Part shown: positions 8,104 to 28,014 of the stretch, piece after piece
How positions within the stretch are numbered: position 1 is the stretch's first letter
Layout: every line of letters starts with the position of its first letter
Assembly (NCBI GenBank): GCA_018714105.1
Contig: DVNW01000012.1
Span: 38,592-102,591, forward strand
Direction of reading: 5' to 3'
From: Candidatus Faecicola pullistercoris
GTDB taxonomy: Bacteria > Bacillota > Clostridia > Christensenellales > CAG-917
DNA length: 64,000 nt
Notes under the pieces: generated by a model
Database searches by the model: none
Told to the model about the DNA's origin: nothing
Seen by the model: only the letters and a program-made list of their open reading frames with translations
Translations under genes and position numbers: made by a program

Positions 8104-8112
8104 AACGGGTTT

Positions 8113-9782: not shown

Positions 9783-9799
9783 ACTCGCCTCCATTGGCT

Positions 9800-9828: not shown

Positions 9829-9831
9829 GCA

Positions 9832-9860: not shown

Positions 9861-9872
9861 ATTTTAAGAGCC

Positions 9873-9908: not shown

Positions 9909-9914
9909 CAGATT

Positions 9915-10973: not shown

Positions 10974-10987
10974 TGTTTTACTTTAAA

Positions 10988-11017
10988 TAAAAAGCCGTCC
11001 GAACGGACGGCTTTTTA
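10988..11017. terminator. bidirectional intrinsic terminator (manA and the convergent 15-gene array)
   Basis: Stem agccgtcc (10993-11000) pairs with ggacggct (11005-11012). An A-run lies upstream and a T-run downstream. Confidence 0.85.
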
Positions 11018-11039
11018 TGTTGTTTCAATTTGTTTGCGC

Positions 11040-12011
11040 TTACTTTGCGGGTACGCTTACGGTTACTTTTTTACCGGGATACTCGAAATTGAATACAAGT
11101 TTATCCGCTTCGCCCCTGTCGCCGTACCATTTTATGATTTCGCTGTCGTTCCAAAGCTGGCTTTCAACCTTATGATAAGCGTAAATATATTCGTTATACA
11201 TCTCTACCATAGTAATATTGTCCTTTTTGGTACTGAGACATACGTTGCTGATTTTCATCTTATGAACTACGGACCAGTCTACTTTGAGGTCCTCGCCGAA
11301 CCCGTTTACGTAACTTACGTTTTCGTCAAGCGTAAGCGGGCGGTAACCCTTTATCTCGTCGCCGTCGAGAATGATGTCGTACATTACGTAATTAACAACG
11401 TTGGTGCCTAGTATGTTTTTGGTACGTGCGTCGGCAACGGAATCCTTTATTGCCTCAACGTCTGCGTATCTTGCAGTTACCGCGAGAGCCAGGTTCTGAA
11501 CGTCGGCCTCGGAACGGCAGAACGATTCAACGAAATAACGGTATCCGTATTCCTTTTCCGCGGGAATAGCCGCCACCGCAGTGCCGTCGACTTTGATTTG
11601 CGAAAGCACTCCGCCGTCATACCAGAATTCGTAACTTACGGGAGCGGCGTACTCGTCGGTATAAAAACCTTCATCGTTCTTCTTTTGTTCGGAAAATTTA
11701 ACGCTGACGTATTCGGCGGCTCCGTCCTTGACGAAGCTGTACTCGAAGCCGGGTTTATACCAGTTTTTGTCATCAGGAAAAGCCTTGTTCCCGTCGTCGT
11801 AATTACTCATGATTTCGAGATAGACTTCGGCCGAGTACTTGTATGTTTCCAGTGCCTGCAGTTTTGCGTAAACTTCGGAATATTTCGCAGAGGTTTTGGT
11901 TATGTTTTCGTCAAGCGTCGCAAAGTGTTCGTCCGACGTTTCCGTACAGCCTGCCAACACTGCAACGGCCAATATACATAAAACCGTTATCGCAATAATC
12001 TTGTTTTTCAT
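11040..12011 (-). CDS. lipoprotein of unknown function
   Basis: The signal peptide ends in the lipobox LAGC (MKNKIIAITVLCILAVAVLAGCTE). The start codon overlaps the upstream transporter's stop (TAATG). Confidence 0.75.
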   Translation of the reverse strand: MKNKIIAITVLCILAVAVLAGCTETSDEHFATLDENITKTSAKYSEVYAKLQALETYKYSAEVYLEIMSNYDDGNKAFPDDKNWYKPGFEYSFVKDGAAEYVSVKFSEQKKNDEGFYTDEYAAPVSYEFWYDGGVLSQIKVDGTAVAAIPAEKEYGYRYFVESFCRSEADVQNLALAVTARYADVEAIKDSVADARTKNILGTNVVNYVMYDIILDGDEIKGYRPLTLDENVSYVNGFGEDLKVDWSVVHKMKISNVCLSTKKDNITMVEMYNEYIYAYHKVESQLWNDSEIIKWYGDRGEADKLVFNFEYPGKKVTVSVPAK

Positions 12012-13558
12012 TACAGTTCTCCCCCTTTGTCGTACTCGTCAATGGCCCGTCCTTCGGCATCGGCTATCTTCTCTTCCTCGGTAACGAACGCGGTTTCCGC
12101 GGAAGCGGCTTCGTTTTCGGTACCGAAATGTTCGCCGTCGGCTGAAATGGTATGTTCCGTTTCCCTCCTAACGGCAAGTCTGGCGTTGATTTCGGCCATT
12201 TTCGAGCCTGAAAGCTTATAGAACAGGAAAGGTATTATACACACAAGGTTGGTAACCGCGGGTATAACGGTAAACATCATGAACAAACCGTCAAGCGTTA
12301 CCGAAAGCTGCCACGGGCTGTGATCGTTTACAGCACTGGTCAGAGGTGTGGCGAACAGGAAAGAAGCAAGCAGGAATGCGAGGAAATAATCCTTGAACGC
12401 GCTGGATATCTTACTGCGAAGCGATACGATGGCAAAAGCTATGCCTTCCTGACGTTTACCCGTCTTATCCTCCCAGTAATCCAGAGTGTCGATAACCATG
12501 AGGTGGGGCGCCACGTTAATGATACCTACCGGCATCATTGCAAAGAACATAACCAGCGCGGTTACTATCCACGGCACTCCGTAGCCTATAAAGAATACCA
12601 AAACCAGCATTACAGAGTGTACTATCGTGGATAATATAAACAACTTTTTGGCGTCCATGCGTTTTTTGAGATAAGGCGCAAGCATCATGCCTATCATGGA
12701 CGCTATAGCTCCCGGCAGCGCAAAAGCTATGTTAAGCGAACCGTTTCCGTATATATAAGTAACCATATATATCTGCATCGCGGAAACCAGGTTTCGGAAG
12801 AACGTCAAAAGCAAGCCTAATATTAATACCAGGAACTGTTTGTTCTTGAACAAATATTTGAAGCCGTCAAGAATATGCACGTTTTCTTCGGTGGGCTTAA
12901 TCCTTTCCTTTACGTTTAGGCCGCCGAGTATCATAAATATCGGAGCCAGAATGCCAATTACCAGTCCCATCATGAGGAAAGTGGTCTTCATAGGCATAAA
13001 CATAATAAACAAAGCGTAAAGCACCAATCCGGACTGCTCGCCTATCGAGCCGACTATTCTGCTTACGGATATTATTTTTGCCCTTTCCTCGGAATTTGGC
13101 GAAGCGACTGCGGGAAGTCCGTCGAGAGGAACGCCTACCAAAGTACTGATAAAATCGTAAAGCAGATAGGAAATATACATAAACGCGACTTTCTGTCCCG
13201 AAGTCAATATTCCGCCTACGGGCAGAAACATCGCTATGATTATCAGTCCGAAAGGCACCGCGCCGTATATAAGATAAGGCCTCATTTTGCCCATCTTATT
13301 TTTGGTTTTGTCTATGATAACGCCCATTATCGGGTCGTTGATGCCGTCCCAAATCTTAGCGATAAGGAACATGGTTCCCACTTTAATCGGGTCGATACCG
13401 AGTACGGAAGTGTAGAAAATCAAAAGATAACCGCCCACCAGGCCCGAAATCGCCGCCGTAGCGAATCTGGCCATCGAGAACGTTATGTAATCTTTCGGTT
13501 TGAGGTACTTCCTCTCGACAATTCCGACTTCGGCGTTGGTTGCTAATGCTTCTGTCAT
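12011..13558 (-). CDS. GPH-family (glycoside-pentoside-hexuronide) cation symporter with an acidic C-terminal tail
   Basis: About 12 transmembrane helices and the GPH signature DGINDPIMGVIIDKTKNKMGKMRPY. AGGAGA RBS. An acidic soluble tail of about 55 aa follows the last helix. Confidence 0.85.
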   Translation of the reverse strand: MTEALATNAEVGIVERKYLKPKDYITFSMARFATAAISGLVGGYLLIFYTSVLGIDPIKVGTMFLIAKIWDGINDPIMGVIIDKTKNKMGKMRPYLIYGAVPFGLIIIAMFLPVGGILTSGQKVAFMYISYLLYDFISTLVGVPLDGLPAVASPNSEERAKIISVSRIVGSIGEQSGLVLYALFIMFMPMKTTFLMMGLVIGILAPIFMILGGLNVKERIKPTEENVHILDGFKYLFKNKQFLVLILGLLLTFFRNLVSAMQIYMVTYIYGNGSLNIAFALPGAIASMIGMMLAPYLKKRMDAKKLFILSTIVHSVMLVLVFFIGYGVPWIVTALVMFFAMMPVGIINVAPHLMVIDTLDYWEDKTGKRQEGIAFAIVSLRSKISSAFKDYFLAFLLASFLFATPLTSAVNDHSPWQLSVTLDGLFMMFTVIPAVTNLVCIIPFLFYKLSGSKMAEINARLAVRRETEHTISADGEHFGTENEAASAETAFVTEEEKIADAEGRAIDEYDKGGEL

Positions 13559-13619
13559 AATTATCTCCTTTTTAAATTATTTGATTTATGCCTTACAATG
13601 ATGACTGTTTATCGGCCTT

Positions 13620-15548
13620 TCAGCCGAGCTCTTTCCTGAAAAAGTCTCCTTCTGGATATTTAAGCACGAACGCGCCCGTAGAACTCCACGCCTGCAGCAA
13701 CGAGCCGTCGGGATGAACGGGGCTGAAAAACTCGACGGGAGTGTAATTGCCTTTACTCAGGTTGTAGGTAAACCACCTGGTAAGAGGATATTCGTAATCC
13801 ATGCCGTACATCAGTTTGGCATAAGCGTACATGCCCGAAAGGTAGGGCCAGTCGCCGCCGTTGTGATAGTAGTAAGGAAGAGTGGACTTCTGTACGGTGT
13901 CGGCAATGTTTTTATAGAACGGATAAACGCTGAGCACGCCGAAATCGCCCGCCTGTTGCTTGGTGTTGTTACGGCTTTCGAGCATTTTTTCCATATTTGC
14001 GAGCATGCGCACGGCTCTGTCGCCGTCGGTAAGCCCGAACAAGGGAATCACCACGGTATCTATCGAAAGATTGTCCTCGGTAAAACCGTCCTTTTTATAA
14101 TTGACGAAATAGCCTTTTTCCTCATCCCACAGAACGTCGTTGATAGCGGCCTTGACTTTTTCGTATTGCCTCATATATTCGCGGGAAAGCCCGTCGTCGC
14201 GTTTTTCGTACAGCTTTCCGAGCGCGTAAAGAGCGCGGGCGTAAAGGCCTTCGTCGTAAGTTACGTATCCGTTGCGGAAGACGTTGTCGCACCAGTCGCG
14301 GCGGTTATACGCACCTCCTTTGACGAGAAGTCCGCTGTCGTCCGTCTCTTTTTTCAGCCTGTCTATTACCTGCTTTGCGGATTCGAGCACGCTTCTGCCC
14401 CCTACCTTTTGGTCGAGAATTGCCGCGTCGCCCGTGTGCGCCACGTAATCGTACAGCATTATGGCGTAAAAACTAGGAGAATCGTAATGATTGCCCCAGT
14501 AGTTTTTAAAATTGAACTTTACGGCTGAAGGACACTCGCCCGTCTTTTTGTTTATGCCTTTGCAAAGCGTTATTATCTGATTGCGCACCAAATCGGGCCT
14601 TACCGGCAGAACGGACAGCACCGTCCAGTACGAGTCGCGGTAATAAGTCCTTGCGGGGAACTGATAAACTATGCCCGCCAGGAAACCTTTGAAATCGCCA
14701 AGTTCCTTATAATTCGACAACGAGCAGTTGATAAGCGAGGCATAATAGCTCTTGTGAAAATCGTCAAGCCCTTCGGGATAAGGGAAAGAATGTATGTAGT
14801 CGCGCGCGTCCTTGTAAGCCTCGTCGAATTCCTTTAAGGCCTTGACAACGTCGCAAAACGTAAAATCGTCGCGAGTACCCGCGCTCATTACGTAGCGGAA
14901 TTTTTTTATCATTCCCGCTTCCACCGTACCGCCGAGCCTGAACTGATTGTAAAAATTACGCTCCTTTTCAAGCACTTCCGCGCCCTCGCTGACGGCAAAG
15001 TCAAGATAAAAATCGCCCATTACGTCGTTGTGAATATAACCTATTCCGTCCTGAAACTCGAGGCCGGGTTTTTTGCCCGCTATCACGCCTTTCAGTATTT
15101 TGCCTATATTGCCCGCGCTTAACCTGTTTGATAAAAGCTGTTCGAGATAAGACGAATAGTTTATGCCGAAATTTATTACGTTTTCGAACTCGATATGCTC
15201 TTTGGCCACTACTTCGATCTGGCAGTACACCGCGTTTTTCGTGCCGTCCAGAAACTGCGTGATCATAATGTCGGCCTGCGGCAGACAGATTGTTGTGCGC
15301 TGCCTGCGGCCTATCATCTCGACCTTTTTCTGTACGTCCCACGTTACGGGCTCGCCGTTTATTCCGAACATCGAATAGTAAGCCGAAAACACGGAAAATT
15401 TGTTCATGACCGCGTATTTGGACACGCCGCCCCGTCCGTCGAACTGCACGGAAATCCTGTTGTTTCCCGCGTCGTAAGCAACCTTTTCAAAATAAGGCCT
15501 GTTTACTATTATTTTTCCGTCCTTAAAAATGGTTTCTGCGTCTTTCAT
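13620..15548 (-). CDS. six-hairpin (alpha/alpha)6 glycoside hydrolase, GDE_C/GH63-like
   Basis: 642 aa. The motifs RDSYW, YYHNGGDWPYL and LLQAWSSTGAF resemble those of the amylo-alpha-1,6-glucosidase/GH63-type catalytic barrel. The exact family could not be determined. Confidence 0.65.
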   Translation of the reverse strand: MKDAETIFKDGKIIVNRPYFEKVAYDAGNNRISVQFDGRGGVSKYAVMNKFSVFSAYYSMFGINGEPVTWDVQKKVEMIGRRQRTTICLPQADIMITQFLDGTKNAVYCQIEVVAKEHIEFENVINFGINYSSYLEQLLSNRLSAGNIGKILKGVIAGKKPGLEFQDGIGYIHNDVMGDFYLDFAVSEGAEVLEKERNFYNQFRLGGTVEAGMIKKFRYVMSAGTRDDFTFCDVVKALKEFDEAYKDARDYIHSFPYPEGLDDFHKSYYASLINCSLSNYKELGDFKGFLAGIVYQFPARTYYRDSYWTVLSVLPVRPDLVRNQIITLCKGINKKTGECPSAVKFNFKNYWGNHYDSPSFYAIMLYDYVAHTGDAAILDQKVGGRSVLESAKQVIDRLKKETDDSGLLVKGGAYNRRDWCDNVFRNGYVTYDEGLYARALYALGKLYEKRDDGLSREYMRQYEKVKAAINDVLWDEEKGYFVNYKKDGFTEDNLSIDTVVIPLFGLTDGDRAVRMLANMEKMLESRNNTKQQAGDFGVLSVYPFYKNIADTVQKSTLPYYYHNGGDWPYLSGMYAYAKLMYGMDYEYPLTRWFTYNLSKGNYTPVEFFSPVHPDGSLLQAWSSTGAFVLKYPEGDFFRKELG

Positions 15549-15552
15549 GCCT

Positions 15553-16713
15553 TTATTTTACTTCCTTTGCCGAAGAAACGGCTTCCTCGGCCTTGCGTTT
15601 TTCGAGTTCGGCGATATATCTTTCCTCGTCGATAGGCAGAGTAACTTCTTCGCCCGTCCAGCCCGACAGATGTATGGCGTTGCTGAAAGTCAGCCCCGTT
15701 ATGCCGTCTACGCCGGGAGCGATCAGCTTGCTTTCCTTTCCGAGAAGCACGCCGGAGTAATTTCTCACTATCCTGAAATGCTGCCCGGGGAAGGCGTTTT
15801 CTCGGATAACTTCTATTAAAGACTTCTTATATACGATTTTCTTATTTTTGGGTTTGGACATAAAGCCCTTGTTTACCGCGCTGAATTCGGGCTCTTTCAC
15901 TTCGTTTTTCACAAAGGTAAGTTTGCGGCCTTCGATTATTATTTTGCCGCCCGTTCCCGTTATTTCAAGCCTGTTGGTGCCCGGAGCGTCGTGCGTAGAG
16001 GTTATGAATACGCCGCTGGCGCCGTTTTTGAATTCGCAGTACGCGGTCACGTCGTTTTCCACGTTGATTGCCCTGCCCACCGTTTTGGTGTATGCCTTTA
16101 CCTTGACGGGAAGCCCCGCAAGCCATGTGAACAGATCGAGCTGATGAGGACACTGATTGATAAGTACGCCGCCGCCTTCGCCGGCCCACGTGCCGCGCCA
16201 GCCGCCCTGATTGTAATACGCCTGAGGACGGTACCAGTTGGTTATTATCCATACTATACGGGTAAGCTCTCCCAGCTCGCCGCTTTCTATAATCTGCTTG
16301 GCTTTTACATACAGCTTGTTCGTGCGCTGATTGTACATTATCCCGAACAGCTGTCCCTTCTTTTCGGAGGCGTATTCGTTGAGCTCTCTTATTGCTTTCG
16401 TGTAAACGCCCGCGGGTTTGTCTATCAGCACGTTCAGCCCTTTTAACAGCGCGTATTCGGCTATTTCGGCATGCTGATAATGCGGCGTTACCACCATTAT
16501 GACGTCTGCAACCTTGTCGTCCACCATCTTTTTGTAATCGTCGTAAACGGCTACTTTGCCCTTTAAGGCGTCCTGCGCCCATTTGCGCCTTTCTTCCCTG
16601 ACGTCGCACACGGCCGTAAGAACGGCGTTTTTATCGGTGTTCATCATAAACCGACGGGCATACATGCTGCCCTGCTTTCCTATACCTACTATGGCATACT
16701 TGACTTTTCCCAT
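15553..16713 (-). CDS. Gfo/Idh/MocA-family NAD(P)-dependent oxidoreductase (paralog A)
   Basis: N-terminal Rossmann motif KYAIVGIGKQG and the EKP motif (IDKPAG). Shares long blocks with the 17661-18785 paralog (FGIMYNQRTN, AYYNQGGWR, GEGGG.LINQC.HQLD, PGTNRLEI). Confidence 0.85.
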   Translation of the reverse strand: MGKVKYAIVGIGKQGSMYARRFMMNTDKNAVLTAVCDVREERRKWAQDALKGKVAVYDDYKKMVDDKVADVIMVVTPHYQHAEIAEYALLKGLNVLIDKPAGVYTKAIRELNEYASEKKGQLFGIMYNQRTNKLYVKAKQIIESGELGELTRIVWIITNWYRPQAYYNQGGWRGTWAGEGGGVLINQCPHQLDLFTWLAGLPVKVKAYTKTVGRAINVENDVTAYCEFKNGASGVFITSTHDAPGTNRLEITGTGGKIIIEGRKLTFVKNEVKEPEFSAVNKGFMSKPKNKKIVYKKSLIEVIRENAFPGQHFRIVRNYSGVLLGKESKLIAPGVDGITGLTFSNAIHLSGWTGEEVTLPIDEERYIAELEKRKAEEAVSSAKEVK

Positions 16714-16722
16714 ATCTTCCTC

Positions 16723-17664
16723 CTATTCGGTTACTTGGGCTATGATTTTCTTTAACCCTTCATACTGCCAGACAAATACCTGCTCCCTGCTTACTTTGCC
16801 GAACAGACTTATTCCGTAAGCTTTGTCGATTCTTCTGAATACTTTATGGAAGTTTTTGACGGGCGGGATAAGCGCCGTTATCGGACAAAGCACGTTGAAT
16901 GCGTTTTTGAGCGCCGCATACTTGCCGGTATGAGGTTCGAGAGTGAAAAATCCTTCGTAGCCCCTGTTGTTTATAAGATCGTCAATCATTTCCCTGTATC
17001 CGCCCTCGCCCGTGCCTACGGGTACTTCGACTTTTTCGGGAGAACAGTCTTTGATATGATAATATACGCAGTAATCTTTAAGTTCGCCGTAAGCCTTGCG
17101 CGCGTCGGCCGAACACTGAATGAAATTGCTTGCGTCAAAGGCGAGTTTGAATTGCTCGTCGCCCAGCGCGTCGTAAATCTGACGGCATCTGGAAGGAATA
17201 TCGCCGTAAATCTTCTTTTCGTTTTCGTGTATGAGTATTACGTCGTGTCCCGCGACCACGTCTTTAAACCCTTGAAGTTTTTTGATTACTTTGGGGAAAT
17301 ATTCGTCGTAATTGCCGTCGGGATTCACTATAAAACTGAATATCCTTATGTATTTGCAATCCATGATTTCGCAGATTTTAACAAGCTCGGCAAGCTGTTT
17401 GAGCTGGCGCGCGTATCCCTCCTCGTCGTCCAGGGCGATTTTACCTATGGGCGAACCTATCGAGGAAAACTTCGCTCCGTACCTGTCCAGCTCGGGCTTG
17501 ATATCCCTTTCGAATTCCTCGGCGGTGTACGAAGAAATATTACGTCCGTTCACGTTCCTCGGACAGATATAGCTTTCGCCCAGTTTTTTCATAAGTTCGA
17601 GCTGTATCTTCAAGTCCGTACTGACCTCGTCGTAAAACCCCGATATTTTAATTTTTGCGCTCAT
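16723..17664 (-). CDS. xylose-isomerase-like TIM-barrel protein (sugar phosphate isomerase/epimerase family)
   Basis: I take the start at the ATG at 17664 (GGAGGG RBS; ATGA overlap with the upstream gene), so the product begins MSAKIKISGFYDE. It has the AP_endonuc_2-type pattern (IRIFS..., ILIHENE, FDASNF, FTLEPH). Confidence 0.8.
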   Translation of the reverse strand: MSAKIKISGFYDEVSTDLKIQLELMKKLGESYICPRNVNGRNISSYTAEEFERDIKPELDRYGAKFSSIGSPIGKIALDDEEGYARQLKQLAELVKICEIMDCKYIRIFSFIVNPDGNYDEYFPKVIKKLQGFKDVVAGHDVILIHENEKKIYGDIPSRCRQIYDALGDEQFKLAFDASNFIQCSADARKAYGELKDYCVYYHIKDCSPEKVEVPVGTGEGGYREMIDDLINNRGYEGFFTLEPHTGKYAALKNAFNVLCPITALIPPVKNFHKVFRRIDKAYGISLFGKVSREQVFVWQYEGLKKIIAQVTE

Positions 17665-18785
17665 TTTTGTTGCCCTCCTCTTTCTTCCTTGCACTTTTTT
17701 GCCAGCAAGTCGGCGTATTCCTCGTCGGAAAAAGGCAGAGATATTTCGCGTCCCGTCCATTCCGACATATACATCGCGTTTATTATTTCAAGAGCGTTCA
17801 GCCCTTCCTCTCCCCGCGCCGTCAGCAAGCCGACGTCGTTGCGGCAGGCGGCCTCGGTAAAACTTTGCAGCACGTTACGCTGTTGCCCGAACAGAGCGTC
17901 CTTAACCGCGCGTATTCCGTAAAATCTGCGCCGCCTTTTATAACCCGTCCGCCCGTAACCCTTTTCGGTGCGTGCGTTGACCTCGGGTTCGGAAAGCCTC
18001 AGCAAATCGTATTTCATTGCGCCGCCCGTTATCACTATGCGTCCCTTGTCGCCGGCAATTTCCAGCCTGTTGGTCCCCGGAAGCTCATGCGTGGAGGCCG
18101 TGAACACCAAATCGAAACCGTCATAACTTACCAAAGCCGTAACGTCGTTTTCGGTGGTGATGTTTCTGCCTTTGGTCTTGCACTTCGCATATACTTTTTC
18201 GGGCCGCCCGAGAAGCCAGCACAATATATCCAGCTGATGCACGCACTGATTTATCAGCGTGCCTCCGCCCTCGCCGTTCCAGCTGGCGCGCCAGCCGCCC
18301 TGATTATAATACGCCTGCGAACGGTACCAGTGAGTCACGGTAAAGTTCACTCGCTGTATTTTGCCTATTTCACCGCCCTCGATGAGCCTTTTGGCTTTTA
18401 TGTACATCGGGTTGGTGCGCTGATTGTACATTATCCCGAACAGAGCTTTGCTTTTACGGGAGTCGGCCACAAGTTTTCTGCCCTCTTTCACGGTTACGGT
18501 AAGCGGCTTCTCCACAAGAGTGTGTATGCCCTTTTCCAGAAAATACGAGGCTATTTCGGCATGTTTATAGTGTTCGGTTGCGATTATCACGCAATCGGGC
18601 TTTTTCGCGGCAACTTCCCTGTAATCGGCCGTGCAAAACACCTTTTTCCCCGCAAAATATCGGGTTTTCTCGCAGTCGGTATCGCATACGGCTATAAGTT
18701 TCGCGCCCTTTACCCGCCCTTTAAGCAGGTTCAAGGCGTGCCTTTTTCCCATGCGCCCGACTCCGACTACTGCCCAGGTTATCAT
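17661..18785 (-). CDS. Gfo/Idh/MocA-family oxidoreductase (paralog B)
   Basis: N-terminus WAVVGVGRMGKRH, VEKP motif, and strong block similarity to the 15553-16713 product. Confidence 0.85.
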   Translation of the reverse strand: MITWAVVGVGRMGKRHALNLLKGRVKGAKLIAVCDTDCEKTRYFAGKKVFCTADYREVAAKKPDCVIIATEHYKHAEIASYFLEKGIHTLVEKPLTVTVKEGRKLVADSRKSKALFGIMYNQRTNPMYIKAKRLIEGGEIGKIQRVNFTVTHWYRSQAYYNQGGWRASWNGEGGGTLINQCVHQLDILCWLLGRPEKVYAKCKTKGRNITTENDVTALVSYDGFDLVFTASTHELPGTNRLEIAGDKGRIVITGGAMKYDLLRLSEPEVNARTEKGYGRTGYKRRRRFYGIRAVKDALFGQQRNVLQSFTEAACRNDVGLLTARGEEGLNALEIINAMYMSEWTGREISLPFSDEEYADLLAKKCKEERGGQQK

Positions 18786-19417: not shown

Positions 19418-19418
19418 T

Positions 19419-20372
19419 TCAGACCTCCGTATAATATGGACTTGTCAGAGCAAGTTCGGTATTCTCTCCGTTTATTCTGCCGCTGACTTTGATATAAAAA
19501 TATCCCTTATCTGTCTTGCCCGAATAATACAGTTCGCTACCGTCCGCCTTAATATCGAGCGCACTGCCCGTAACGGTGATTGCGTTTATCTCGACGTCGT
19601 ACTCTTTTGCATAATCCGGGTTTAAAACCGCTTTCACGCTAAGTTCAACCTCGTTTTCGGTTATAACTTCGCTAAGTTCGTATTTTCTGCCGCCCGCAGT
19701 GAGCGATATTTCAAGTTCAACTCCCGACGAAATATACGTGCGCCCCGCCTTTACCGCTTCCACCATCTTACGGGCGGTCAGCTCGCCTTCCGCTCCGAGA
19801 TATGTTGCCGAGTACGGAGGGCACCCCTCGTCGGGACAGTGCCAGTCGTATCCGTATACCGCCGCTATGCGCTCGCCGGCGTCCAGCCGTTCTTTCCAGA
19901 GCGTTTCGGCCTGTCTGTTGGCCGCGTCCCTGTTCTGGTTAAAATGACTCCACACCTCGATACCCGAAAGTCTGCCGTAGTCAAGAGCGTCAAAATCGTT
20001 GTGGCAGCCGCAGCATATCGCCCCCCCTATGCGAGTGGGATGACACAGCACTACCGCGTCGCCGGCAGCTTTGGCCCGCTCAATCATAGCGTTGACGTTA
20101 TCGGGATTAACCTCGCGCCAGTCTACGGGACTTTTGCCGCCCAGCACAGTGATATGCCCGTAGAAAGTAGTCCATTCCATACCTTCCGTTACTGTTATGC
20201 CCGCTTTGTCCCCCGCCGCTTTTATGCGCGGATAGGCAAACCTGGTGTTGTGGTCCGTAGTTGCAATGCCCGCATAGCCGCGCTTGACCGCGTTGGCGAC
20301 AAGCTCCTCTGGCGTCATTATCCCGTCGCTCCACAAGGTATGGGTGTGAAGTTCGCACTTATAATATTTCAT
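19419..20372 (-). CDS. PHP-domain metal-dependent phosphoesterase (CehA/McbA-like) with a C-terminal beta-rich extension
   Basis: CELHTHTLWSDG...ATTDHNT is the PHP metal-binding signature. I take the start at the ATG at 20372 (GGAGGG RBS 6 nt upstream). Confidence 0.8.
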   Translation of the reverse strand: MKYYKCELHTHTLWSDGIMTPEELVANAVKRGYAGIATTDHNTRFAYPRIKAAGDKAGITVTEGMEWTTFYGHITVLGGKSPVDWREVNPDNVNAMIERAKAAGDAVVLCHPTRIGGAICCGCHNDFDALDYGRLSGIEVWSHFNQNRDAANRQAETLWKERLDAGERIAAVYGYDWHCPDEGCPPYSATYLGAEGELTARKMVEAVKAGRTYISSGVELEISLTAGGRKYELSEVITENEVELSVKAVLNPDYAKEYDVEINAITVTGSALDIKADGSELYYSGKTDKGYFYIKVSGRINGENTELALTSPYYTEV

Positions 20373-20823
20373 CGCTGCCCTCCACAATAACTCTTACCGT
20401 TACCTTTCCCGTTATTATACAGTTCATGCTTAACGTGATTTTCCATTTCCCGCTTGTTACGGGAGCGGGACGGAAACCGTAAGCGCTCTCCCGTTCGTTA
20501 ATGAAATGCTCCTGCACGGGCGCGTGGCGGTGAGCCGTACCCAACCAACCGTCGGGGCTGTCCACCGACAGCGAAATGTGGTTTTTAAGAGGCAGAAAGT
20601 ATTTTAAGTCCTTCTCCTCGAACGGCGCGTACCAGGCGTCTTTTTTCAGAACTTCGCGCACAATTGCGAGGCTGGCCGTTTCGTCGTCGAAATCTTTTGG
20701 CGAATAAGCGATTTTTATGCGGATTTCTTTAAGCCCTTCGGGCACGTCGAACGGTATCTCTTTGTGCGTGTGGTTGTCGGCGTTGAAATATTCCTTTGTA
20801 AAGTCTGCCAGTACCTTTTTCAT
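20359..20823 (-). CDS. hypothetical protein (154 aa), coupled to the PHP phosphoesterase
   Basis: A clean ORF inside the operon whose 3' end overlaps the PHP gene start by 14 nt. I recognise no motif in it. Confidence 0.6.
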   Translation of the reverse strand: MKKVLADFTKEYFNADNHTHKEIPFDVPEGLKEIRIKIAYSPKDFDDETASLAIVREVLKKDAWYAPFEEKDLKYFLPLKNHISLSVDSPDGWLGTAHRHAPVQEHFINERESAYGFRPAPVTSGKWKITLSMNCIITGKVTVRVIVEGSDEIL

Positions 20824-20831
20824 ACTTTCCT

Positions 20832-22115
20832 TTACTTTATATCGGGTATTTCTTCCGCGGTTACCAAACGTCCGCCCTCTTTTCTTGAAAGCTCTGCCGC
20901 CGTTACTATGCGGTGGCTTTCGACCGTGTCGCTTATCCAGGTGTACTGAATATCGGGATCGCTTTTGTTTTCGAGCATTGCCACCGCCGCTTTCATCAGC
21001 CCCTGATCGCCGCCGTAATGGCCGCGCACGACGGGTATAAGATTAACCCTTATACGTCGCTTCCTGCCGTCGAAGGGTATGAATTCGAGTATGCTGTGAC
21101 TGTCGTCCGCTATAAGTTCGCCCTTAGTTCCGCGGATTTCGGTATGACGGTGATTTTTCTCGTTGAACGCGGTTACCGTCATCGTGCATTTCACGCCGTT
21201 TTCAAACTCGATATTTACAGTCTGATTGTCCACTACGTCGTTGTCGCAACGGTATACGCAACGGCCGAACAGCTTGCCTTTTTCGCCCTCGACAAGGGAT
21301 TTTGCTATATCGGCCCGGGATTTGGACTGACAGAACGCATAAGTGCCCCACGGGAATTTCTTTTTGCGCAGAATACCCTTTCTGCGGCCTATGTACTGAT
21401 AAAAAGCGTCGTACATACAGGTGTCGTGATATTTACAGTCCTTGCAGGCCGCCGCGCTGCCTTCGGGAGCGTTTTCGGCCTTGAAGTACCTGAGATCGCC
21501 GTACGAGTTGAGTTTTTTGAACTTGCTGCCCGTATACCAGTGCAGTATGTCCATATCGTGACAGCATTTTGCAAGAAGCATGGGCGAGGTTTCCTCCTCT
21601 CTGCGCCAGTTGCCTCTCACATAGCTGTGAGCAAAATGCCAGTAGCTTATGTTTTCGTCGTGTTTTATGGTAATTATGTCGCCGAGCACTCCGCTGTCAA
21701 TCATCTCTTTTACCCTGCGATAGTAAGGGGCATACCTCAGAACGTGGCAGACAAGCACTTTCAATCCCTTTTCGCGGGCGGTGCGCTCAATTTCGAGGCA
21801 CTCGCCGATAAAAGGACTTACGGGTTTTTCCATAATGATGTTATACCCGAGTTCGAGCGCCTTCATAGCGTGACCGTAATGGTCCCTGTCCTGAGTAGCT
21901 ATAATGATGGCGTCGGCTACTTTGCCCTGCGCGAAAAACTCCTCGTCGCTTGTGAAGCAGCCGCTGTCGGGCACGTTCCACGCAGTTTTGACCTTGTCTA
22001 TTTTGTTTTGGAATTTGTCGCAGACGCTGACTATGGCAATGTTCTTCATTTTGGCGAGATGCCCGCCGTAATTTTTGCCTCTGCTGCCTAGTCCTAATAC
22101 CGCTACTTTAATCAT
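20832..22115 (-). CDS. Gfo/Idh/MocA-family oxidoreductase, long form with a Cys-rich insertion
   Basis: N-terminus MIKVAVLGLGSRGKNY, the MEKP motif, and the insertion AAACKDCKYHDTC...CVYRC. AGGTGA RBS. Confidence 0.8.
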   Translation of the reverse strand: MIKVAVLGLGSRGKNYGGHLAKMKNIAIVSVCDKFQNKIDKVKTAWNVPDSGCFTSDEEFFAQGKVADAIIIATQDRDHYGHAMKALELGYNIIMEKPVSPFIGECLEIERTAREKGLKVLVCHVLRYAPYYRRVKEMIDSGVLGDIITIKHDENISYWHFAHSYVRGNWRREEETSPMLLAKCCHDMDILHWYTGSKFKKLNSYGDLRYFKAENAPEGSAAACKDCKYHDTCMYDAFYQYIGRRKGILRKKKFPWGTYAFCQSKSRADIAKSLVEGEKGKLFGRCVYRCDNDVVDNQTVNIEFENGVKCTMTVTAFNEKNHRHTEIRGTKGELIADDSHSILEFIPFDGRKRRIRVNLIPVVRGHYGGDQGLMKAAVAMLENKSDPDIQYTWISDTVESHRIVTAAELSRKEGGRLVTAEEIPDIK

Positions 22116-22155
22116 AATTCACCTATAACAACGTTTTAAGTTTTAAAAATCGTAT

Positions 22156-22977
22156 TTAAACTCCCGAATATGCGCTGAAACCGCCGTCTATCGGTACTAC
22201 TATGCCGGTTACGAAACCGCTCTTCTCGTCGTCGGTGAGCCATAAGAGAGTGCCGAGAAGTTCCTCGGGCTTGCCGAAACGGCCCATGGGCGTGCCGCGC
22301 AGGATTTTTTCGCTTCGGGCGGTAAGCGTACCGTCCTCGTTATAAAGAAGGTTATAGTTCTGATGCGTTACGAAAAAGCCGGGGGCTATGGCGTTTACCC
22401 TTATGCCGGCGGGCGCGAAATGCACGGCAAGCCACTGCGTGAAGTTGGAAACCGCGGCTTTTGCTCCGCTGTATGCGGGTATCCTGGTAAGGGGACGGAA
22501 AGCGTTCATCGAACTGATATTGATTATGTTGCCCCCTCTGTCCACCATATCGGCTACGAAAACCTGAGTGGTAAGGAAGGTCGCCAGAAAATTGAGCTTG
22601 AATACGAAATCCACCGCGCCGCCGTCAAGGTCGAAGAAGCTTTTAACGTCGGGATTTTCCATATCGGCTTTATCGAAAACGTCGTGGCTCGTATTGCCCT
22701 TGGGGTTGTTTCCGCCCGCGCCGTTGATAAGCAGATCGCAAGGACCCAGGTCCTTCAATATGCTTAAACGCACGTTTTCCATATCGGCTTTTTCAAGGCA
22801 GTTGGCCTTGTACGCTTTGGCCTCGCCGCCCTCTTTGACTATCTCGTCGGCCACCTTTTCGGCCGCTTCCTTATTAAGGTCGAGAAGAGCCACCTTGTAT
22901 CCTTCCTTTGCGTATGCCTTTGCTATCGTACTGCACAGTACGCCGCCGGCTCCCGTGATTACAGCTACTTTTTTCAT
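22156..22977 (-). CDS. uxuB: SDR-family oxidoreductase, probable D-mannonate/fructuronate oxidoreductase
   Basis: TGAGGVLC cofactor motif and YSGAK catalytic motif. It lies immediately downstream of uxuA, as YjmF-type SDR UxuB does in Firmicutes. Confidence 0.7.
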   Translation of the reverse strand: MKKVAVITGAGGVLCSTIAKAYAKEGYKVALLDLNKEAAEKVADEIVKEGGEAKAYKANCLEKADMENVRLSILKDLGPCDLLINGAGGNNPKGNTSHDVFDKADMENPDVKSFFDLDGGAVDFVFKLNFLATFLTTQVFVADMVDRGGNIINISSMNAFRPLTRIPAYSGAKAAVSNFTQWLAVHFAPAGIRVNAIAPGFFVTHQNYNLLYNEDGTLTARSEKILRGTPMGRFGKPEELLGTLLWLTDDEKSGFVTGIVVPIDGGFSAYSGV

Positions 22978-24027
22978 TTATTTACCCTCCTTGCTTTGCT
23001 TTTCGATTGCTTCTATCAACCCCCACAGATACATGGCGCCCAGCGCGCGGTCATACAAGCCATAACCGGCCTTGCCCTCTTCGCCCCATATCATTCGGCC
23101 GTGGTCGGGCCTTATATAGCCGTCGAATCCCGTTTCTTTCAGGGCTTTTATTATTTCGTACATATCGAGACTGCCGCACGCGGAAATGTGTCCGCTTTCC
23201 TCAAAGCATTTTTCGCCGGTTATTTTAATGTTTCTGAGATGAACGAAGGGCATGCGTCCCGCGCAGGCCTTGATTATATCCACAAGATCGTTGGACGTGC
23301 TTACTCCCAAAGAACCGGTACACAGCGTGATGCCGTTGGACGGACTGTCCACTATGTCGAGAAAACGTTTTAAATTTTTCTTGTCGGTGATAATTCTGGG
23401 CAGGCCGAAAATTCCCCACGGCGGATCGTCGGGATGAATTGCCATTTTGATGCCTGCTTCCTCGGCAACGGGTATTACGGCTTTAAGGAACACGGCGAGG
23501 TTTTCCCACAGTTTTTCCTCGTCGATACCGCTGTACTTGTTGAGAAGCTCTTTCAGCCCCGCCTTGGTGTAACTGCTGTCCCAACCGGGAAGGTCGAGGT
23601 CGCTGGTCAGCGGATTCATTGCAAGAACGGTTTTATGATCGTACGCAAGCGCGTTGCTTCCGTCGGCGTTTTCCTTTTTAAGCTCGCTTCTGAGCCAGTC
23701 GAACACGGGCATGAAGTTGTAACATATGCATTTTACGCCCGCCTCGCCGAGTCTTCTGACGTTTTCTTTATAATTTTCGATATATCTCGCCGCGTCGCCG
23801 CTTCCGAGTTTGATGTCCTCGTGAACGGGTACGCTTTCGATTACCTCGAACGAAAGCCCTTCGCTCTCCGCCGCCGTTTTGAGCGCGTTTATGCTTTCCC
23901 TGCTCCATACTTCGCCCACAGGCGTGTCGTATACCGCGGTTACCACGCCGCTCATGCAAGGTATCTGTCTTATGTATTTAAGGCTTATCTTATCGTCAAG
24001 ACCGTACCATCTGAAAGTCATTTTCAT
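22978..24027 (-). CDS. uxuA: mannonate dehydratase
   Basis: The N-terminus MKMTFRWYGLDDKISLKYIRQIP is typical of UxuA. 349 aa. GGAGGA RBS. Confidence 0.9.
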   Translation of the reverse strand: MKMTFRWYGLDDKISLKYIRQIPCMSGVVTAVYDTPVGEVWSRESINALKTAAESEGLSFEVIESVPVHEDIKLGSGDAARYIENYKENVRRLGEAGVKCICYNFMPVFDWLRSELKKENADGSNALAYDHKTVLAMNPLTSDLDLPGWDSSYTKAGLKELLNKYSGIDEEKLWENLAVFLKAVIPVAEEAGIKMAIHPDDPPWGIFGLPRIITDKKNLKRFLDIVDSPSNGITLCTGSLGVSTSNDLVDIIKACAGRMPFVHLRNIKITGEKCFEESGHISACGSLDMYEIIKALKETGFDGYIRPDHGRMIWGEEGKAGYGLYDRALGAMYLWGLIEAIEKQSKEGK

Positions 24028-24039
24028 AATTATGTCCTC

Positions 24040-25404
24040 CTATATCAGTTTCTTTGCGTTACCGTAGCAAAGGTCTGTTGCCGTTTTTTTGATATCGTCC
24101 ATATTGCTTTCGTCCGCATAGCCCGCGAGATATTCGGCCACTATCTGCCTGTAATATCCGTGCCTTACGTAGCTTAAAAAGCTGCGGCTGTCGGTAAGCA
24201 TGCCTACCATGGTGTTCACGTGAGAAAGTTCCCCCAGCGCGTTGAAACTTTCGGTCATGCCCCTCTTATGGTCGTTGAACCACCACGCTATGCCGAGATG
24301 TATTCCCCTGAACGAACCTATCAGCGTAATGAGCCCGTAATACATTGTGGGATTAAGCGTATAGATTATGGTTTCGGGCAGGCCGTCCGCCTTTTCCATT
24401 TCGTCGAACATAGCCGCAAGGACGTTTACGCTTATCGGATCGCCAACGCTGTCGAAGCCGCTGTCAGCACCGAGTTTTTTATACATCGCGCTGTTGTTGT
24501 TGCGCCTTACCGCTACGTGCATCTGCATCACCATGCCGCGCTTTTTGTATTCGGCGGCAAGTTTTACGATAATGTAGCCCAAAAACGCTTTGAGCTCGTC
24601 AAGTCCGACCTTCTTGCCCCCGAGCGCCTTTACGAAAGCCTTTTCGGCTTCCTCCCTGCATGCCGTTCCGTCCGGGAACACGGGTATACCCATGTCCGAA
24701 AATCTGCAGCCCATACTTACGAAAAAGTCCAAACGCCTGCTTACCGCTTCTTCGTAATCGGCAAGAGAACGGATTTCAATGTCCGCCGCCGCCGAAAGTT
24801 TTTTGAGATATTCCGTATAGTCGGGAGCGTCTATCATTATCATCCTGTCTACCCTGAACGAGGGTACGACTTTGGCCTTGACCTTGCCTTCCGCCGCTAT
24901 CAGGCCGTGATATTCGAGGCTGTCTGCGGGATCGTCGGTTGTGGCGATATATTCCACGTTAGAGCGTTCGATAAGTTTTACGGGGCTGAGTTGTTCGCCG
25001 CGTATTTCAGCCTCGGTAAGCTCCCATATCTTATCGGCGTTTTCCTTTTTGAGCGGAAGAGTTATGCCGAAATACTCCGAAAGTTCCAACCTTACCCAGT
25101 CGCGTACGGGGTTGCCGTAGGCAGTGGATACCGCTTCGATAAACGCGTTGAACTTAGCTTTGTAATCCGCGTCGCCCGTAATGTATTTTTCGTCGATTCC
25201 GTATGCACGCATAAGGCGCCATTTGTAATGGTCGCCCGCAAGCCACATCTCGCCTATGTTGCCGAAAGGCTTGTCCTCGTATATTTCTTTGGGGCTGAGA
25301 TGGCAGTGATAATCTATTACGGGTAAATCCTTTACCGCTTCGTAAATTTCCCGGCCTCTCTCGCCCGTTATGAAATTAACGCCGCTATCTCTGAATTCTG
25401 CCAC
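24040..25404 (-). CDS. uxaC: glucuronate isomerase
   Basis: Contains LPVIDYHCHLSPKEI...GDHYKWRLMR. I prefer the GTG start at 25404 (GGAGGG RBS 8 nt upstream) over the track's TTG at 25422. Confidence 0.9.
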   Translation of the reverse strand: MAEFRDSGVNFITGERGREIYEAVKDLPVIDYHCHLSPKEIYEDKPFGNIGEMWLAGDHYKWRLMRAYGIDEKYITGDADYKAKFNAFIEAVSTAYGNPVRDWVRLELSEYFGITLPLKKENADKIWELTEAEIRGEQLSPVKLIERSNVEYIATTDDPADSLEYHGLIAAEGKVKAKVVPSFRVDRMIMIDAPDYTEYLKKLSAAADIEIRSLADYEEAVSRRLDFFVSMGCRFSDMGIPVFPDGTACREEAEKAFVKALGGKKVGLDELKAFLGYIIVKLAAEYKKRGMVMQMHVAVRRNNNSAMYKKLGADSGFDSVGDPISVNVLAAMFDEMEKADGLPETIIYTLNPTMYYGLITLIGSFRGIHLGIAWWFNDHKRGMTESFNALGELSHVNTMVGMLTDSRSFLSYVRHGYYRQIVAEYLAGYADESNMDDIKKTATDLCYGNAKKLI

Positions 25405-26407
25405 TGCCGTCGCCCTCCGCAAGACGCTTTACCTCGGCTACCGTAACTATGTTGAAATCGCCCTCGACGGTCTGCTTTATGCAGGACGCCGCCGTCGCGA
25501 ACTCGATAGCCTCCGCGTTCGAATAACCGTTTTTAAGCGCGTAAATGAGTCCCGCGCCGAAGCTGTCGCCGCCTCCTACTCTGTCGACTATGTCTATCAC
25601 GTAATTTTTGGATTTGAAGACGCTTTCGCCTTCGCACAGCACGGCGGACCAGCCGTTAACGCTGGCCGATATGCTCTCTCTCAGCGTAAACGCCGTCTTC
25701 TTTACGCCCGGGAAGCGCTTCATTACTTCGCGCGCTACCTTGCCGTATCCCTCGGCCGACAGTCTGCCGCCCGTTATGTCGCTGCCCTCGGCCTGTATGC
25801 CGAACACGTCCTTGACGTCTTCCTCGTTGCTTATGAGCACGTCCACGTATTTGACGAGTTCGGTCATGACCTTGTTGGCCTTTTCGCGGCTCCACAGTTT
25901 TTTCCTGTAATTGATATCGCACGAAACCGTTATGCCCTTTTCCTTTGCGGCCTTCGCAAGCGCGAGAGTAAGCTCGGCCACTCCGTCCGAAAGCGCGGGA
26001 GTAATGCCCGTAACGTGGAACCACTCTACCCCATCGAGAACGGCGTTTACGTCCACGTCGGCAAGAGTAAGCCCGGCTGCCACGGACCCCGCCCTGTCGT
26101 ATATGATTTCGCTGGCGCGCTGCGCGCAGCCCTTTTCGCAAAAATAGATGCCCATGCGCCCGCTCCGGCGTACTATCGCACCAGTATCGACGCCGAAACC
26201 GCGCAATACGTTTACGCATTTGTCCGCAATTCTGTTATCGGGAAGTCCGGTGAGATATTTTACCTGCTCGCCCATCTGCGCGAGAGATACCGCCACGTTT
26301 GCTTCCCCTCCGCCGTACACGGCCTCGTAAGCCTCGGCCTGCATGAAACGCTTATAACCGAAAGGCTGTAACCTTAACATTATTTCACCGAAAGTAAGTA
26401 TCGCCAT
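25385..26407 (-). CDS. kdgK: 2-dehydro-3-deoxygluconokinase
   Basis: Contains LTFGEIMLRLQP...YGGGEANVAVSL. PfkB family. I take the start at the ATG at 26407 (AGGTGA RBS). Confidence 0.88.
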   Translation of the reverse strand: MAILTFGEIMLRLQPFGYKRFMQAEAYEAVYGGGEANVAVSLAQMGEQVKYLTGLPDNRIADKCVNVLRGFGVDTGAIVRRSGRMGIYFCEKGCAQRASEIIYDRAGSVAAGLTLADVDVNAVLDGVEWFHVTGITPALSDGVAELTLALAKAAKEKGITVSCDINYRKKLWSREKANKVMTELVKYVDVLISNEEDVKDVFGIQAEGSDITGGRLSAEGYGKVAREVMKRFPGVKKTAFTLRESISASVNGWSAVLCEGESVFKSKNYVIDIVDRVGGGDSFGAGLIYALKNGYSNAEAIEFATAASCIKQTVEGDFNIVTVAEVKRLAEGDGSGRIQR

Positions 26408-26412
26408 TTCTG

Positions 26413-27054
26413 TCACCTGCCCTGAATATACTTGGCCGCTTCGGCAACGAGTTCCCTTGCCGTCTCTTCGACCTTTCCGTAATCGCCGCTTTTAGCCCCC
26501 TCCGTAAGGAAAGAACCCGCGCCTACCGCAAAAGCACCCGCTTTGAACCATTCGCCTACGTTCTGCATACTGACTCCGCCGGTGGGCATTATGTTTGCCT
26601 GAGGCAGAGGTCCTTTGAAACCTTTGAGTCCCGCGGGTTTCATCACGTCCCCCGGGAACAGCTTTATAACGTCCACACCGTATTCGAGCGCGGCAACAGC
26701 CTCAGTGGGCGTCATTACCCCCGTCATGCACGGAACGCGGTATTTGTTGCAGATTTTTACCGTGTCGACGTCGAGCGCGGGACTTACGATATACTTCGCC
26801 CCTGCAAGCATGGCTATGCGCGCGGTCTGACTGTCAAGCACCGTGCCCGCGCCGATATAAGCATCGGGATACTTTTTGCAAAGACGGCTAATCACCTTGT
26901 CCGCATCGGGCGCGGTGAAGGTAACTTCTATAAATTTTATGCCGCCGGCTATACAGGCGTCGGCCGATTTTTCGGCCTGTTCCGCGGTGGCGCCGCGGAT
27001 AACGGCCACTACTCCGCTTTTGTAAAGTTGCATTATAAGATTTGTCTTTTTCAT
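26413..27054 (-). CDS. eda: KDPG / 4-hydroxy-2-oxoglutarate aldolase
   Basis: Contains VVAVIRG...IKFIEVTF...GAGTVL...FPG. I take the start at the ATG at 27054 (AGGAGA RBS); the track's extension lacks an RBS. Confidence 0.88.
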   Translation of the reverse strand: MKKTNLIMQLYKSGVVAVIRGATAEQAEKSADACIAGGIKFIEVTFTAPDADKVISRLCKKYPDAYIGAGTVLDSQTARIAMLAGAKYIVSPALDVDTVKICNKYRVPCMTGVMTPTEAVAALEYGVDVIKLFPGDVMKPAGLKGFKGPLPQANIMPTGGVSMQNVGEWFKAGAFAVGAGSFLTEGAKSGDYGKVEETARELVAEAAKYIQGR

Positions 27055-27100
27055 ATCTGTCTCCTGCCTTACGGGGAAAATTTCGCACTTATACATTTAT

Positions 27101-27129
27101 ATTATAAACTAATAGTTTACTGTAAGCAA
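27101..27129 (-). promoter_or_regulatory. promoter of the eda-led array, with a 15-bp perfect palindrome in the spacer
   Basis: On the minus strand: TTGCTT (27129-27124), 17-nt spacer, TATAAT (27106-27101). The spacer contains TAAACTA-A-TAGTTTA (27105-27119). Confidence 0.55.
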
Positions 27130-27970: not shown

Positions 27971-28014
27971 ATATGTATTTTGCAAAATCAATATTTTAAA
28001 TATCGGAGATTAAT

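Follow-up and report, generated by a model that had tools for sequence, protein, structure and literature searches.

A fifteen-gene array combining a predicted oxidative glucuronide-cleaving core with glucuronate catabolism in a gut Clostridia genome

Gene content and layout of the array

The 64,000-nucleotide (nt) stretch analysed here (the window) comes from the forward strand of contig DVNW01000012.1 (positions 38,592 to 102,591; assembly GCA_018714105.1) of Candidatus Faecicola pullistercoris. Its minus strand carries, between 11040 and 27096, fifteen consecutive open reading frames (ORFs), from eda to a lipoprotein gene, which we think probably constitute a single catabolic operon, under AraC control, for the use of glucuronic-acid glycosides by an uncultured gut bacterium of Christensenellales-like affiliation. 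Homology and synteny are the basis for identifying its core module and its five canonical hexuronate enzymes, and for the conserved linkage between them. The core resembles enzymes encoded on fosmid P2B11, one of which, Oxido1, was crystallised as 'P2B11 glucuronide-3-dehydrogenase' (PDB 8TDI). The original prediction had described a co-directional minus-strand array of fifteen genes; each ORF is present where it was claimed, and the labels match those that we took from Pfam and NCBIfam. The features are listed below in array order, with the divergent regulator and the promoter first and the terminator last.

27200-27970, plus: AraC-family regulator, divergent from the array (Pfam HTH_18, HTH_AraC, AraC_binding)
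27101-27129, minus: putative sigma-70 promoter of the array, read from the sequence (-35 TTGCTT 27129-27124, 17-nt spacer, -10 TATAAT 27106-27101)
26413-27054, minus: eda, KDPG/KHG aldolase (PF01081; NF005119 276.6 bits, cut-off 238, aligned from residue 15)
25385-26407, minus: kdgK, 2-dehydro-3-deoxygluconokinase-type PfkB kinase (PF00294)
24040-25404, minus: uxaC, glucuronate isomerase (PF02614, E 1e-148; NF002794 493.8 bits, cut-off 387)
22978-24027, minus: uxuA, mannonate dehydratase (PF03786, E 1.5e-146; TIGR00695 411 bits, cut-off 199.6)
22156-22977, minus: SDR-type D-mannonate oxidoreductase with UxuB function, interconverting fructuronate and mannonate (NF006132 414 bits, cut-off 281)
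20832-22115, minus: Gfo427, divergent Gfo/Idh/MocA oxidoreductase of 427 amino acids (aa) with a Cys-rich insert of about 57 aa (Pfam)
20359-20823, minus: unk154, beta-sandwich protein of 154 aa and obligate partner of PHP (predicted fold and gene context)
19419-20372, minus: PHP-domain metallohydrolase of the CehA/McbA type (PF02811; NF038032 207 bits, cut-off 80)
18782-19417, minus: GDPDl, compact protein of 211 aa resembling glycerophosphodiester phosphodiesterases (GDPDs) (PF03009 28.9 bits against 23.6, over the C-terminal 64 residues, 139-202, only)
17661-18785, minus: Gfo374, paralogue of glucuronide 3-dehydrogenase (8TDI, E 2.4e-62; 34% identity to Oxido1)
16723-17664, minus: TIM, xylose-isomerase-like TIM barrel, orthologue of P2B11 Iso1 (PF01261; 42% identity to Iso1 over 250 aa, E 2e-61)
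15553-16713, minus: Gfo386, orthologue-grade homologue of P2B11 Oxido1, a glucuronide 3-dehydrogenase (8TDI, E 3.1e-99, 336 bits, full length)
13620-15548, minus: GH642, protein of 642 aa in which an (alpha/alpha)6 barrel follows a beta-sandwich at the N-terminus (weak Pfam matches; nearest fold GH94 phosphorylases)
12011-13558, minus: GPH-family (MFS_2) cation symporter (PF13347; TIGR00792 256.6 bits, cut-off 231)
11040-12011, minus: fast-evolving lipoprotein with lipobox LAGC, its start overlapping the GPH stop (read from the sequence)
10987-11018, both strands: bidirectional intrinsic terminator (14-pair stem with 6 G-C pairs, A/T runs on either side)

With the best start codons, the successive junctions from eda to the lipoprotein gene measure 5, -20, 12, 0, 40, 8, -14, 1, -4, -4, 9, 4, 61 and -1 nt. 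The widest gaps are thus those between GH642 and GPH (61 nt) and between uxuB and Gfo427 (40 nt), all others being 12 nt or less or overlaps, in agreement with the spacing reported originally. The contig recurs, with matching gene calls, in an independently made ENA metagenome assembly of this genome (L001), where kdgK is called at 340 aa, uxaC at 454 aa, PHP at 317 aa and TIM at 313 aa.

The eda ORF extends to 27096, and an ATG at 27054, 14 codons further in, is preceded by an AGGAG Shine-Dalgarno sequence; the latter is probably the true start. This would leave a leader of about 40 nt, which makes the promoter at 27101-27129 more plausible. The site lies in the 103-nt divergent region (measured between ORFs) common to eda and the AraC gene. 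The original prediction had proposed a promoter here, and its perfect -10 hexamer keeps the proposal plausible, but the -35 hexamer matches the consensus at three of six positions (TTG alone) and falls under the threshold of our promoter scanner, which is why the scanner did not list it. The AraC-family protein is likely the regulator of the array, and its orthologues (57-70% identity) are divergent from eda in every related locus with that flank visible.

At the other end, the hairpin expected at 10988-11017 was recovered at 10987-11018. Since A- and T-runs flank it, it should act in both directions, and it is common to the array and a convergent mannose-6-phosphate-isomerase-like gene. Genes beyond the lipoprotein in relatives are unrelated (heavy-metal ATPase, 3-deoxy-D-arabino-heptulosonate 7-phosphate synthase), which agrees with the terminator as the end of the unit. 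Inside the array the minus strand offers weak stems of 5-6 bp, and terminator-like sites total 28 against 28.5 expected from shuffled sequence, so the earlier statement that no hairpin with a U-tract interrupts the array holds. An Rfam scan returned no RNA element within the array. Taken together, the layout suggests that all fifteen genes would be co-transcribed.

The oxidative core and its conservation beside glucuronate genes

Nasseri et al. (2024; bioRxiv 10.1101/2024.03.25.586180) described a non-Koshland mode of glycoside cleavage that starts with oxidation of C3 by a Gfo/Idh/MocA enzyme carrying bound NAD. A metal-dependent TIM barrel of the 'sugar phosphate isomerase' kind then expels the aglycone by elimination, after which the 2-hydroxy-3-keto-glycal is hydrated and the keto sugar re-reduced. 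On fosmid P2B11, from a Collinsella-like gut bacterium, the Iso1-Oxido1-Oxido2-Iso2 set cleaves alpha- and beta-glucuronides and thioglucuronides, using tightly bound NAD and Mn2+/Co2+, and Oxido1 together with one Iso protein suffices for alpha- and beta-glucuronide cleavage via a 3-keto intermediate. That route was found by functional metagenomics; a nearby transporter or regulator was not apparent, and the downstream pathway and natural substrate were not described (bioRxiv 10.1101/2024.03.25.586180).

Gfo386 is 45% identical to Oxido1 and keeps all six of its pocket residues (the equivalents of N147, W179, R181, Y185, N205 and H209). The same six residues are retained in Gfo374, which matches Oxido1 at E 2e-63 and Oxido2 at E 2e-23 and is thus predicted to be an Oxido1 paralogue rather than an Oxido2 orthologue. 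A PDB sequence search with TIM gave no significant match; the protein was identified through the P2B11 protein sequences printed in the supplement of the preprint, which carry some optical character recognition errors, so that identities are slightly underestimated. Its metal-ligand motifs (HENE, D177, H-x-K-D and LEPH) are invariant in 31 TIM/Iso1 sequences, Iso1 included, which points to a metal-dependent 3-keto-glucuronide 1,2-lyase. The genes are contiguous: the stop of Gfo374 and the start of TIM overlap, and 9 nt separate the end of TIM from Gfo386. Gfo386, TIM and Gfo374 are therefore a predicted P2B11-type oxidative glucuronide-cleaving core. Assignment to the DgpA/C-glycoside or levoglucosan pathways was rejected, the corresponding matches being 45-85 orders of magnitude weaker than that to 8TDI.

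It could be argued that these genes encode conventional dehydrogenases and isomerases for inositol or sugars (IolG-, IolE- or IolI-like) that take no part in glycoside cleavage, since their Pfam families are generic, an iol operon lies nearby and the iolG model TIGR04380 gives low scores with the Gfo/Idh/MocA proteins. Those scores are 78, 96 and 84 bits for Gfo427, Gfo374 and Gfo386, however, against a cut-off of 355, whereas the true iolG of the window reaches 473. Moreover, 8TDI leads all other matches by 60-70 orders of magnitude, and TIM finds its counterpart in Iso1, while IolE weakly matches Iso2 and not Iso1. We give this explanation next to no weight.

The five genes at the head of the array are assigned to the canonical hexuronate route. 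UxaC, UxuA, the SDR mannonate oxidoreductase and Eda pass curated NCBIfam cut-offs. KdgK reaches 519 bits on the kinase portion of NF041633, an aldolase/kinase fusion model, and 233 bits on the KDG/KDGal kinase model, below the cut-offs for stand-alone KDG kinases; position and synteny make its assignment probable. Only the glucuronate branch (uxuA/uxuB) of hexuronate catabolism is present in the array, which fits glucuronate as the sugar released.

The pathway that we propose would begin with import of the substrate by the GPH symporter, possibly aided by the cell-surface lipoprotein encoded by the neighbouring gene. In the cytoplasm, Gfo386 and its paralogue Gfo374 would oxidise the C3 hydroxyl of the glucuronosyl residue with bound NAD+, and the metal-dependent TIM would remove the aglycone by 1,2-elimination. 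The resulting 2-hydroxy-3-keto-glycal would be hydrated and reduced back to free D-glucuronate. UxaC, the SDR-type UxuB, UxuA, KdgK and Eda would then convert glucuronate to pyruvate and glyceraldehyde-3-phosphate. The original prediction had likewise held that glucuronate is freed from an imported glycoside by non-hydrolytic chemistry before entering the Uxa/Uxu/Kdg/Eda route, and both the P2B11 homology and the co-occurrence of genes described below back it. It had also treated the ten other genes as uncharacterised, but three of them, Gfo386, TIM and Gfo374, belong to the system published in 2024.

For comparative analysis we used 80 species-level loci from GTDB genomes, retrieved via alignment of Gfo386 relatives, onto which the window proteins were mapped for gene presence. 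Nearly all hosts are uncultured gut or rumen Clostridia (Christensenellales/Christensenellaceae, Ca. Ornithoclostridium, Ca. Stercoripulliclostridium), at 57-66% identity. TIM adjoins Gfo386 in 69 of the 80 loci, and a Gfo374-like gene lies next to the pair in 46. The accessory genes had been expected to co-occur with hexuronate genes elsewhere, and the interpretation was to fail if they never did. Hexuronate genes were found in 52 of the 59 loci whose upstream flank is 8 kb or longer, clearly against that refuting condition.

Three architectures can be distinguished. A short one consists of uxuA-uxuB-TIM-Gfo386, and a minimal one is exemplified by locus L023, with the order GH31-uxaC-uxuA-uxuB-eda-kdgK-Gfo374-TIM-Gfo386-GPH-Iso2. 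The extended architecture, which is that of the window and includes Gfo427, GDPDl, GH642, GPH and the lipoprotein, was found in 21 loci, and its full order is kept in 14-21 species. Gfo427 is confined to these 21 loci, always with GDPDl and GH642, and unk154 and PHP occur in 14 of them, neither gene being found without the other. The ten accessory genes, which had been presented as one set, are thus linked to hexuronate genes but are not indivisible: they fall into a core that is widely found (Gfo374-TIM-Gfo386), a group limited to one lineage type (Gfo427, GDPDl, GH642, GPH, lipoprotein) and an optional pair (unk154 and PHP).

An Iso2 homologue is present in 22 loci altogether (the L023 copy is 27% identical to P2B11 Iso2), and across the 80 loci it never co-occurs with the Gfo427/GDPDl/GH642 set. 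This mutual exclusion suggests either that a member of the extended set takes the place of Iso2 or that each architecture handles a substrate of its own. Variant clusters elsewhere have, beside Gfo386 or uxaC, a gene for a carboxylesterase/alpha-beta hydrolase, for an enzyme of the GH13 alpha-amylase family or for a GH31 enzyme (L011 11155-14536; L053 11171-12895; L023 935-2929), and the pre-processing enzyme has apparently been swapped between lineages.

Such modularity raises the question of whether the array is instead a mosaic of independent modules for different substrates, namely the hexuronate route, a P2B11-like cassette, and a phosphoesterase and transporter cassette with its own glycosidase. 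The core stands alone in many loci, Gfo427/GDPDl/GH642 and unk154/PHP come and go as described, the phosphoesterase cassette recurs in other contexts, and the 40-nt and 61-nt gaps fall at module borders. Weak promoter-like sites also lie inside the array, for example near 22139-22111 and 21700-21673, at a frequency not above that of shuffled sequence. The modules do not simply follow one another, however, but interleave: Gfo427 and the phosphoesterase cassette sit between uxuB and Gfo374, and GH642 and GPH come after Gfo386. This interleaved order is kept across species at 45-80% protein identity, start and stop codons overlap across module borders, and the array has a single terminator. We therefore consider a mosaic unlikely.

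The internal promoter-like matches nevertheless count against a single glucuronide operon, as do three further points. Neither an Iso2 homologue, beyond a weak match to iolE (E 3e-6 to 9e-6), nor an Oxido2 orthologue was found in the window, and the hydration and reduction steps are accordingly left without an assigned catalyst. The characterised enzymes are matched at 42-45% identity, a level at which sugar specificity could differ. Finally, the accessory genes vary by locus, and the unk154/PHP/GDPDl cassette with GPH appears in unrelated contexts, so that this cassette may serve a separate substrate.

Accessory genes, neighbourhood and candidate substrates

Gfo427 lacks most of the Oxido1 substrate-pocket residues and reached no model in the NCBIfam scan; it is a candidate second dehydrogenase or 3-keto reductase.

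The adjacent unk154, PHP and GDPDl genes form a cassette. Profile searches of Pfam, NCBIfam and PDB with unk154 returned no matches. Its AlphaFold2 model (pLDDT 97.6) predicts a jelly-roll, PPC/GOLD-like, that matches generic beta-sandwich domains only (TM-score at most 0.53), none of them enzyme-like. PHP, whose start overlaps unk154 by 14 nt, aligns with NF038032 over residues 7-320 of the 322-aa ORF translation. GDPDl matches GDPDs in a PDB profile search (E 3e-6) and has invariant residues H5, E31, D33 and H45, with the N-terminal motif A-H-G-G in place of H-R-G; it is shorter than the roughly 240-250 aa of the GDPD family (Pfam model 244; PDB chains 238-252). In each of the contexts examined, unk154 has PHP either after it or fused to it. 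Fusions of the two occur in related loci L067 and L073, which are Christensenellaceae metagenome-assembled genomes with one continuous ORF of about 497 aa (L067 5727-7220, L073 5681-7171), and in database proteins P0255, P0296, P0356 and P0381; P0333 is a triple unk154-PHP-GDPD fusion and P0300 a GDPD-unk154 fusion. Elsewhere the cassette is accompanied by GPH/MFS_2 transporters and by GH20, GH4 and ABC-transporter genes. Its recurrence with such transporters and varied glycosidases indicates a mobile phosphoesterase-like module, which would remove a phosphodiester, phosphate or ester substituent.

GH642 belongs to a small family of about 481 members, mostly annotated 'hypothetical protein'. 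Foldseek searches with its AlphaFold2 model (pLDDT 89.6) place GH94 first (TMq 0.70-0.76, cellobionic acid phosphorylase included), followed by GH116 and GH63. It falls short of Pfam GH94 membership, with 19.9 bits on PF17167 against a gathering threshold of 27. An invariant R-R-D-W-C-D motif nonetheless aligns with R-A-D-W-N-D of chitobiose phosphorylase (D418-W-C-D421 against D489-W-N-D492), in which the last Asp, D492, is presumably the general (catalytic) acid. The predicted GH94-like fold and the aligned motif suggest that GH642 is probably catalytically active, as a glycosidase or phosphorylase from a new family, and it may use hydrolysis or phosphorolysis to trim a sugar that glucuronate carries.

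The lipoprotein matched no Pfam or NCBIfam family, and tblastn against the related loci gave no matches. The idea that it is specific to the window was dropped after phmmer and alignment of same-position genes gave weak homology (E 6e-15 to 2e-7); lipoproteins follow GPH in all extended-type loci examined. Their genes (11040-12011 in the window; counterparts in L006-L079) have starts that overlap or abut the symporter stop, and the proteins retain only N- and C-terminal motifs such as GFGEDxxYxW and PYY. An MFS_2 symporter with a dedicated surface lipoprotein is an unusual pairing.

Beyond the AraC gene, the minus-strand region 28962-41202 contains a complete myo-inositol operon, iolG-iolA-iolE-iolD-iolB-iolC (iolG at 28962-29975), and further along the same strand a GH38 alpha-mannosidase gene (36213-39158) and a GH36/melibiase-like gene (39442-41202). 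This combination suggests the use of glycosyl-inositols. When iol genes were sought beside AraC in relatives, using AraC-anchored metagenome contigs, none were present there, and GH38 alone was kept, in 6 loci; iol adjacency was rejected as a general feature of the array. In locus L162 (NCBI GCA_965329645.1, CBDPEQ010000093.1, 1674-14489), the gene for the 708-aa triple fusion P0333 and an iolCBDEAG operon are divergent from each other, and two Exo_endo_phos (sphingomyelinase/phospholipase C superfamily) genes come after the fusion, the first with a lipoprotein signal (LLTGC) and the second without a signal peptide in its N-terminus. This is possibly a locus for the utilisation of inositol-phospholipid head groups.

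Inositol glycans, suggested in the original prediction, are a possible substrate of the array. A specific version of this idea takes the substrate to be a glucuronosyl-inositol-phosphate head group, as in plant glycosyl-inositol-phosphoceramides (Hex-GlcA-alpha1,2-Ins-1-P-ceramide) or their fungal counterparts. GDPDl and PHP, with the beta-sandwich protein unk154, would strip the phosphodiester and then the phosphate; GH642, the GH38 alpha-mannosidase or both would remove the capping hexose; Gfo386 and TIM would cleave the alpha-glucuronosyl-inositol bond, for which no glycosidase is known; and glucuronate would enter the Uxa/Uxu route and inositol the adjacent Iol operon. The complete iol operon with GH38 and the GH36-like gene just past AraC, the arrangement in L162, the retention of GH38 in six relatives and the ability of P2B11-type enzymes to cleave alpha- as well as beta-linkages all speak for it. 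Against this, none of the related loci examined has the iol operon adjacent, so that the link in the window may be coincidence, and the phosphoesterase cassette elsewhere keeps the company of GH20, GH4 and ABC-transporter genes. GPH symporters, to our knowledge, do not transport phosphorylated sugars, and a literature search found nothing on gut bacterial breakdown of glycosyl-inositol-phosphoceramides. On balance we find this head group a doubtful substrate. Were it correct, the oxidative glucuronide pathway would gain a natural substrate, and gut Christensenellales would have a route for exploiting a plant membrane lipid that ranks among the most abundant.

Other genes also lie close to the array. 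On the plus strand (27200-28902), a 295-aa PfkB-family kinase follows 44 nt past AraC; it reaches no NCBIfam model and has no counterpart beside AraC in related loci. The mannose-6-phosphate-isomerase-like gene that converges on the array terminator (plus strand) is divergent from a PfkB sugar kinase (minus strand) within 8886-10973, with a perfect TTGACA-17-TATAAT match between them at 9832-9860; this adjacency to the array was not seen in related loci. The remainder of the window includes genes for the anaerobic ribonucleotide reductase NrdD, whose C-terminus is glutaredoxin-like, and for its radical-SAM activase (5610-8808), a single tRNA gene (2209-2279) that is the sole Rfam match in the window, and a 1215-aa minus-strand ORF (53044-56691) in the part of lowest GC (0.41 at 54-56 kb against about 0.48-0.52 elsewhere).

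Returning to the glucuronide operon, the roughly 80 loci present an oxidative cassette built into the glucuronate catabolic operon of gut Christensenellales-like Clostridia, together with an AraC regulator and a GPH symporter, and this integration makes a nutritional role likely. They provide a defined genetic unit with which to test which dietary, host or drug glucuronides are consumed by abundant, rarely cultured bacteria without a classical beta-glucuronidase. The conserved accessory set (the GH94-like protein, Gfo427, the beta-sandwich/PHP/GDPDl cassette and the lipoprotein linked to the transporter) may give a clue to the natural substrate, and the fixed position of these families in a pathway with known input and output makes them directly assayable.

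Comparison with known systems

Canonical hexuronate (Ashwell) operons, uxaC-uxuAB-kdgK-eda, are usually paired with a GH2 beta-glucuronidase and a GusB/UidB transporter. The array shares these five downstream enzymes and has a transporter of the GPH family but contains neither GH2 nor another known glucuronidase, and we assign the release of glucuronate to the oxidative cassette. GH642, for its part, shares the beta-sandwich and (alpha/alpha)6 architecture and the D-W-x-D motif of GH94 enzymes (cellobiose, chitobiose and cellobionic acid phosphorylases), while being about 150-180 residues shorter and only 11-15% identical to GH94 structures.

The BT2156-2160 system of Bacteroides thetaiotaomicron and AL1-5 of Alistipes work by the same three steps, using a Gfo/Idh/MocA enzyme as 3-dehydrogenase and a TIM barrel as 1,2-lyase. 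Those systems are periplasmic (signal or twin-arginine translocation peptides), take glucosides as substrates and rely on a DUF1080 protein for the alpha-lyase/hydratase function, whereas here there is no DUF1080 protein, and the corresponding enzymes have no signal peptides on reading of their N-termini. On the NCBIfam models BT_2158/BT_2159 the window proteins score 26-59 bits, against cut-offs of 650-750.

The closest relationship is with P2B11. Both have an adjacent cytoplasmic Oxido1-type dehydrogenase with an identical pocket and an Iso1-type lyase with the same metal-ligand motifs, and the window enzymes would carry out the same oxidation, elimination and hydration on glucuronides. They differ in that the window belongs to Clostridia (Bacillota) and P2B11 to Coriobacteriia; in that the window lacks orthologues of Iso2 and Oxido2 and has a second Oxido1 paralogue, Gfo374; and in that its cassette lies inside a uxaC-uxuA-uxuB-kdgK-eda operon with regulator and transporter, the array having seven further genes in all beyond the core and the five hexuronate genes. 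Minimal loci such as L023, which keep an Iso2 homologue, stand nearer to P2B11 than the window does. A literature search for a named glucuronide 3-dehydrogenase and for follow-up in Christensenellaceae found nothing past the 2024 preprint. As its core is the pathway published that year, the finding is not categorically new; the array is a distinct variant, integrated into a hexuronate operon with its regulator and transporter, without Iso2 and Oxido2, and extended by additional conserved, unstudied genes.

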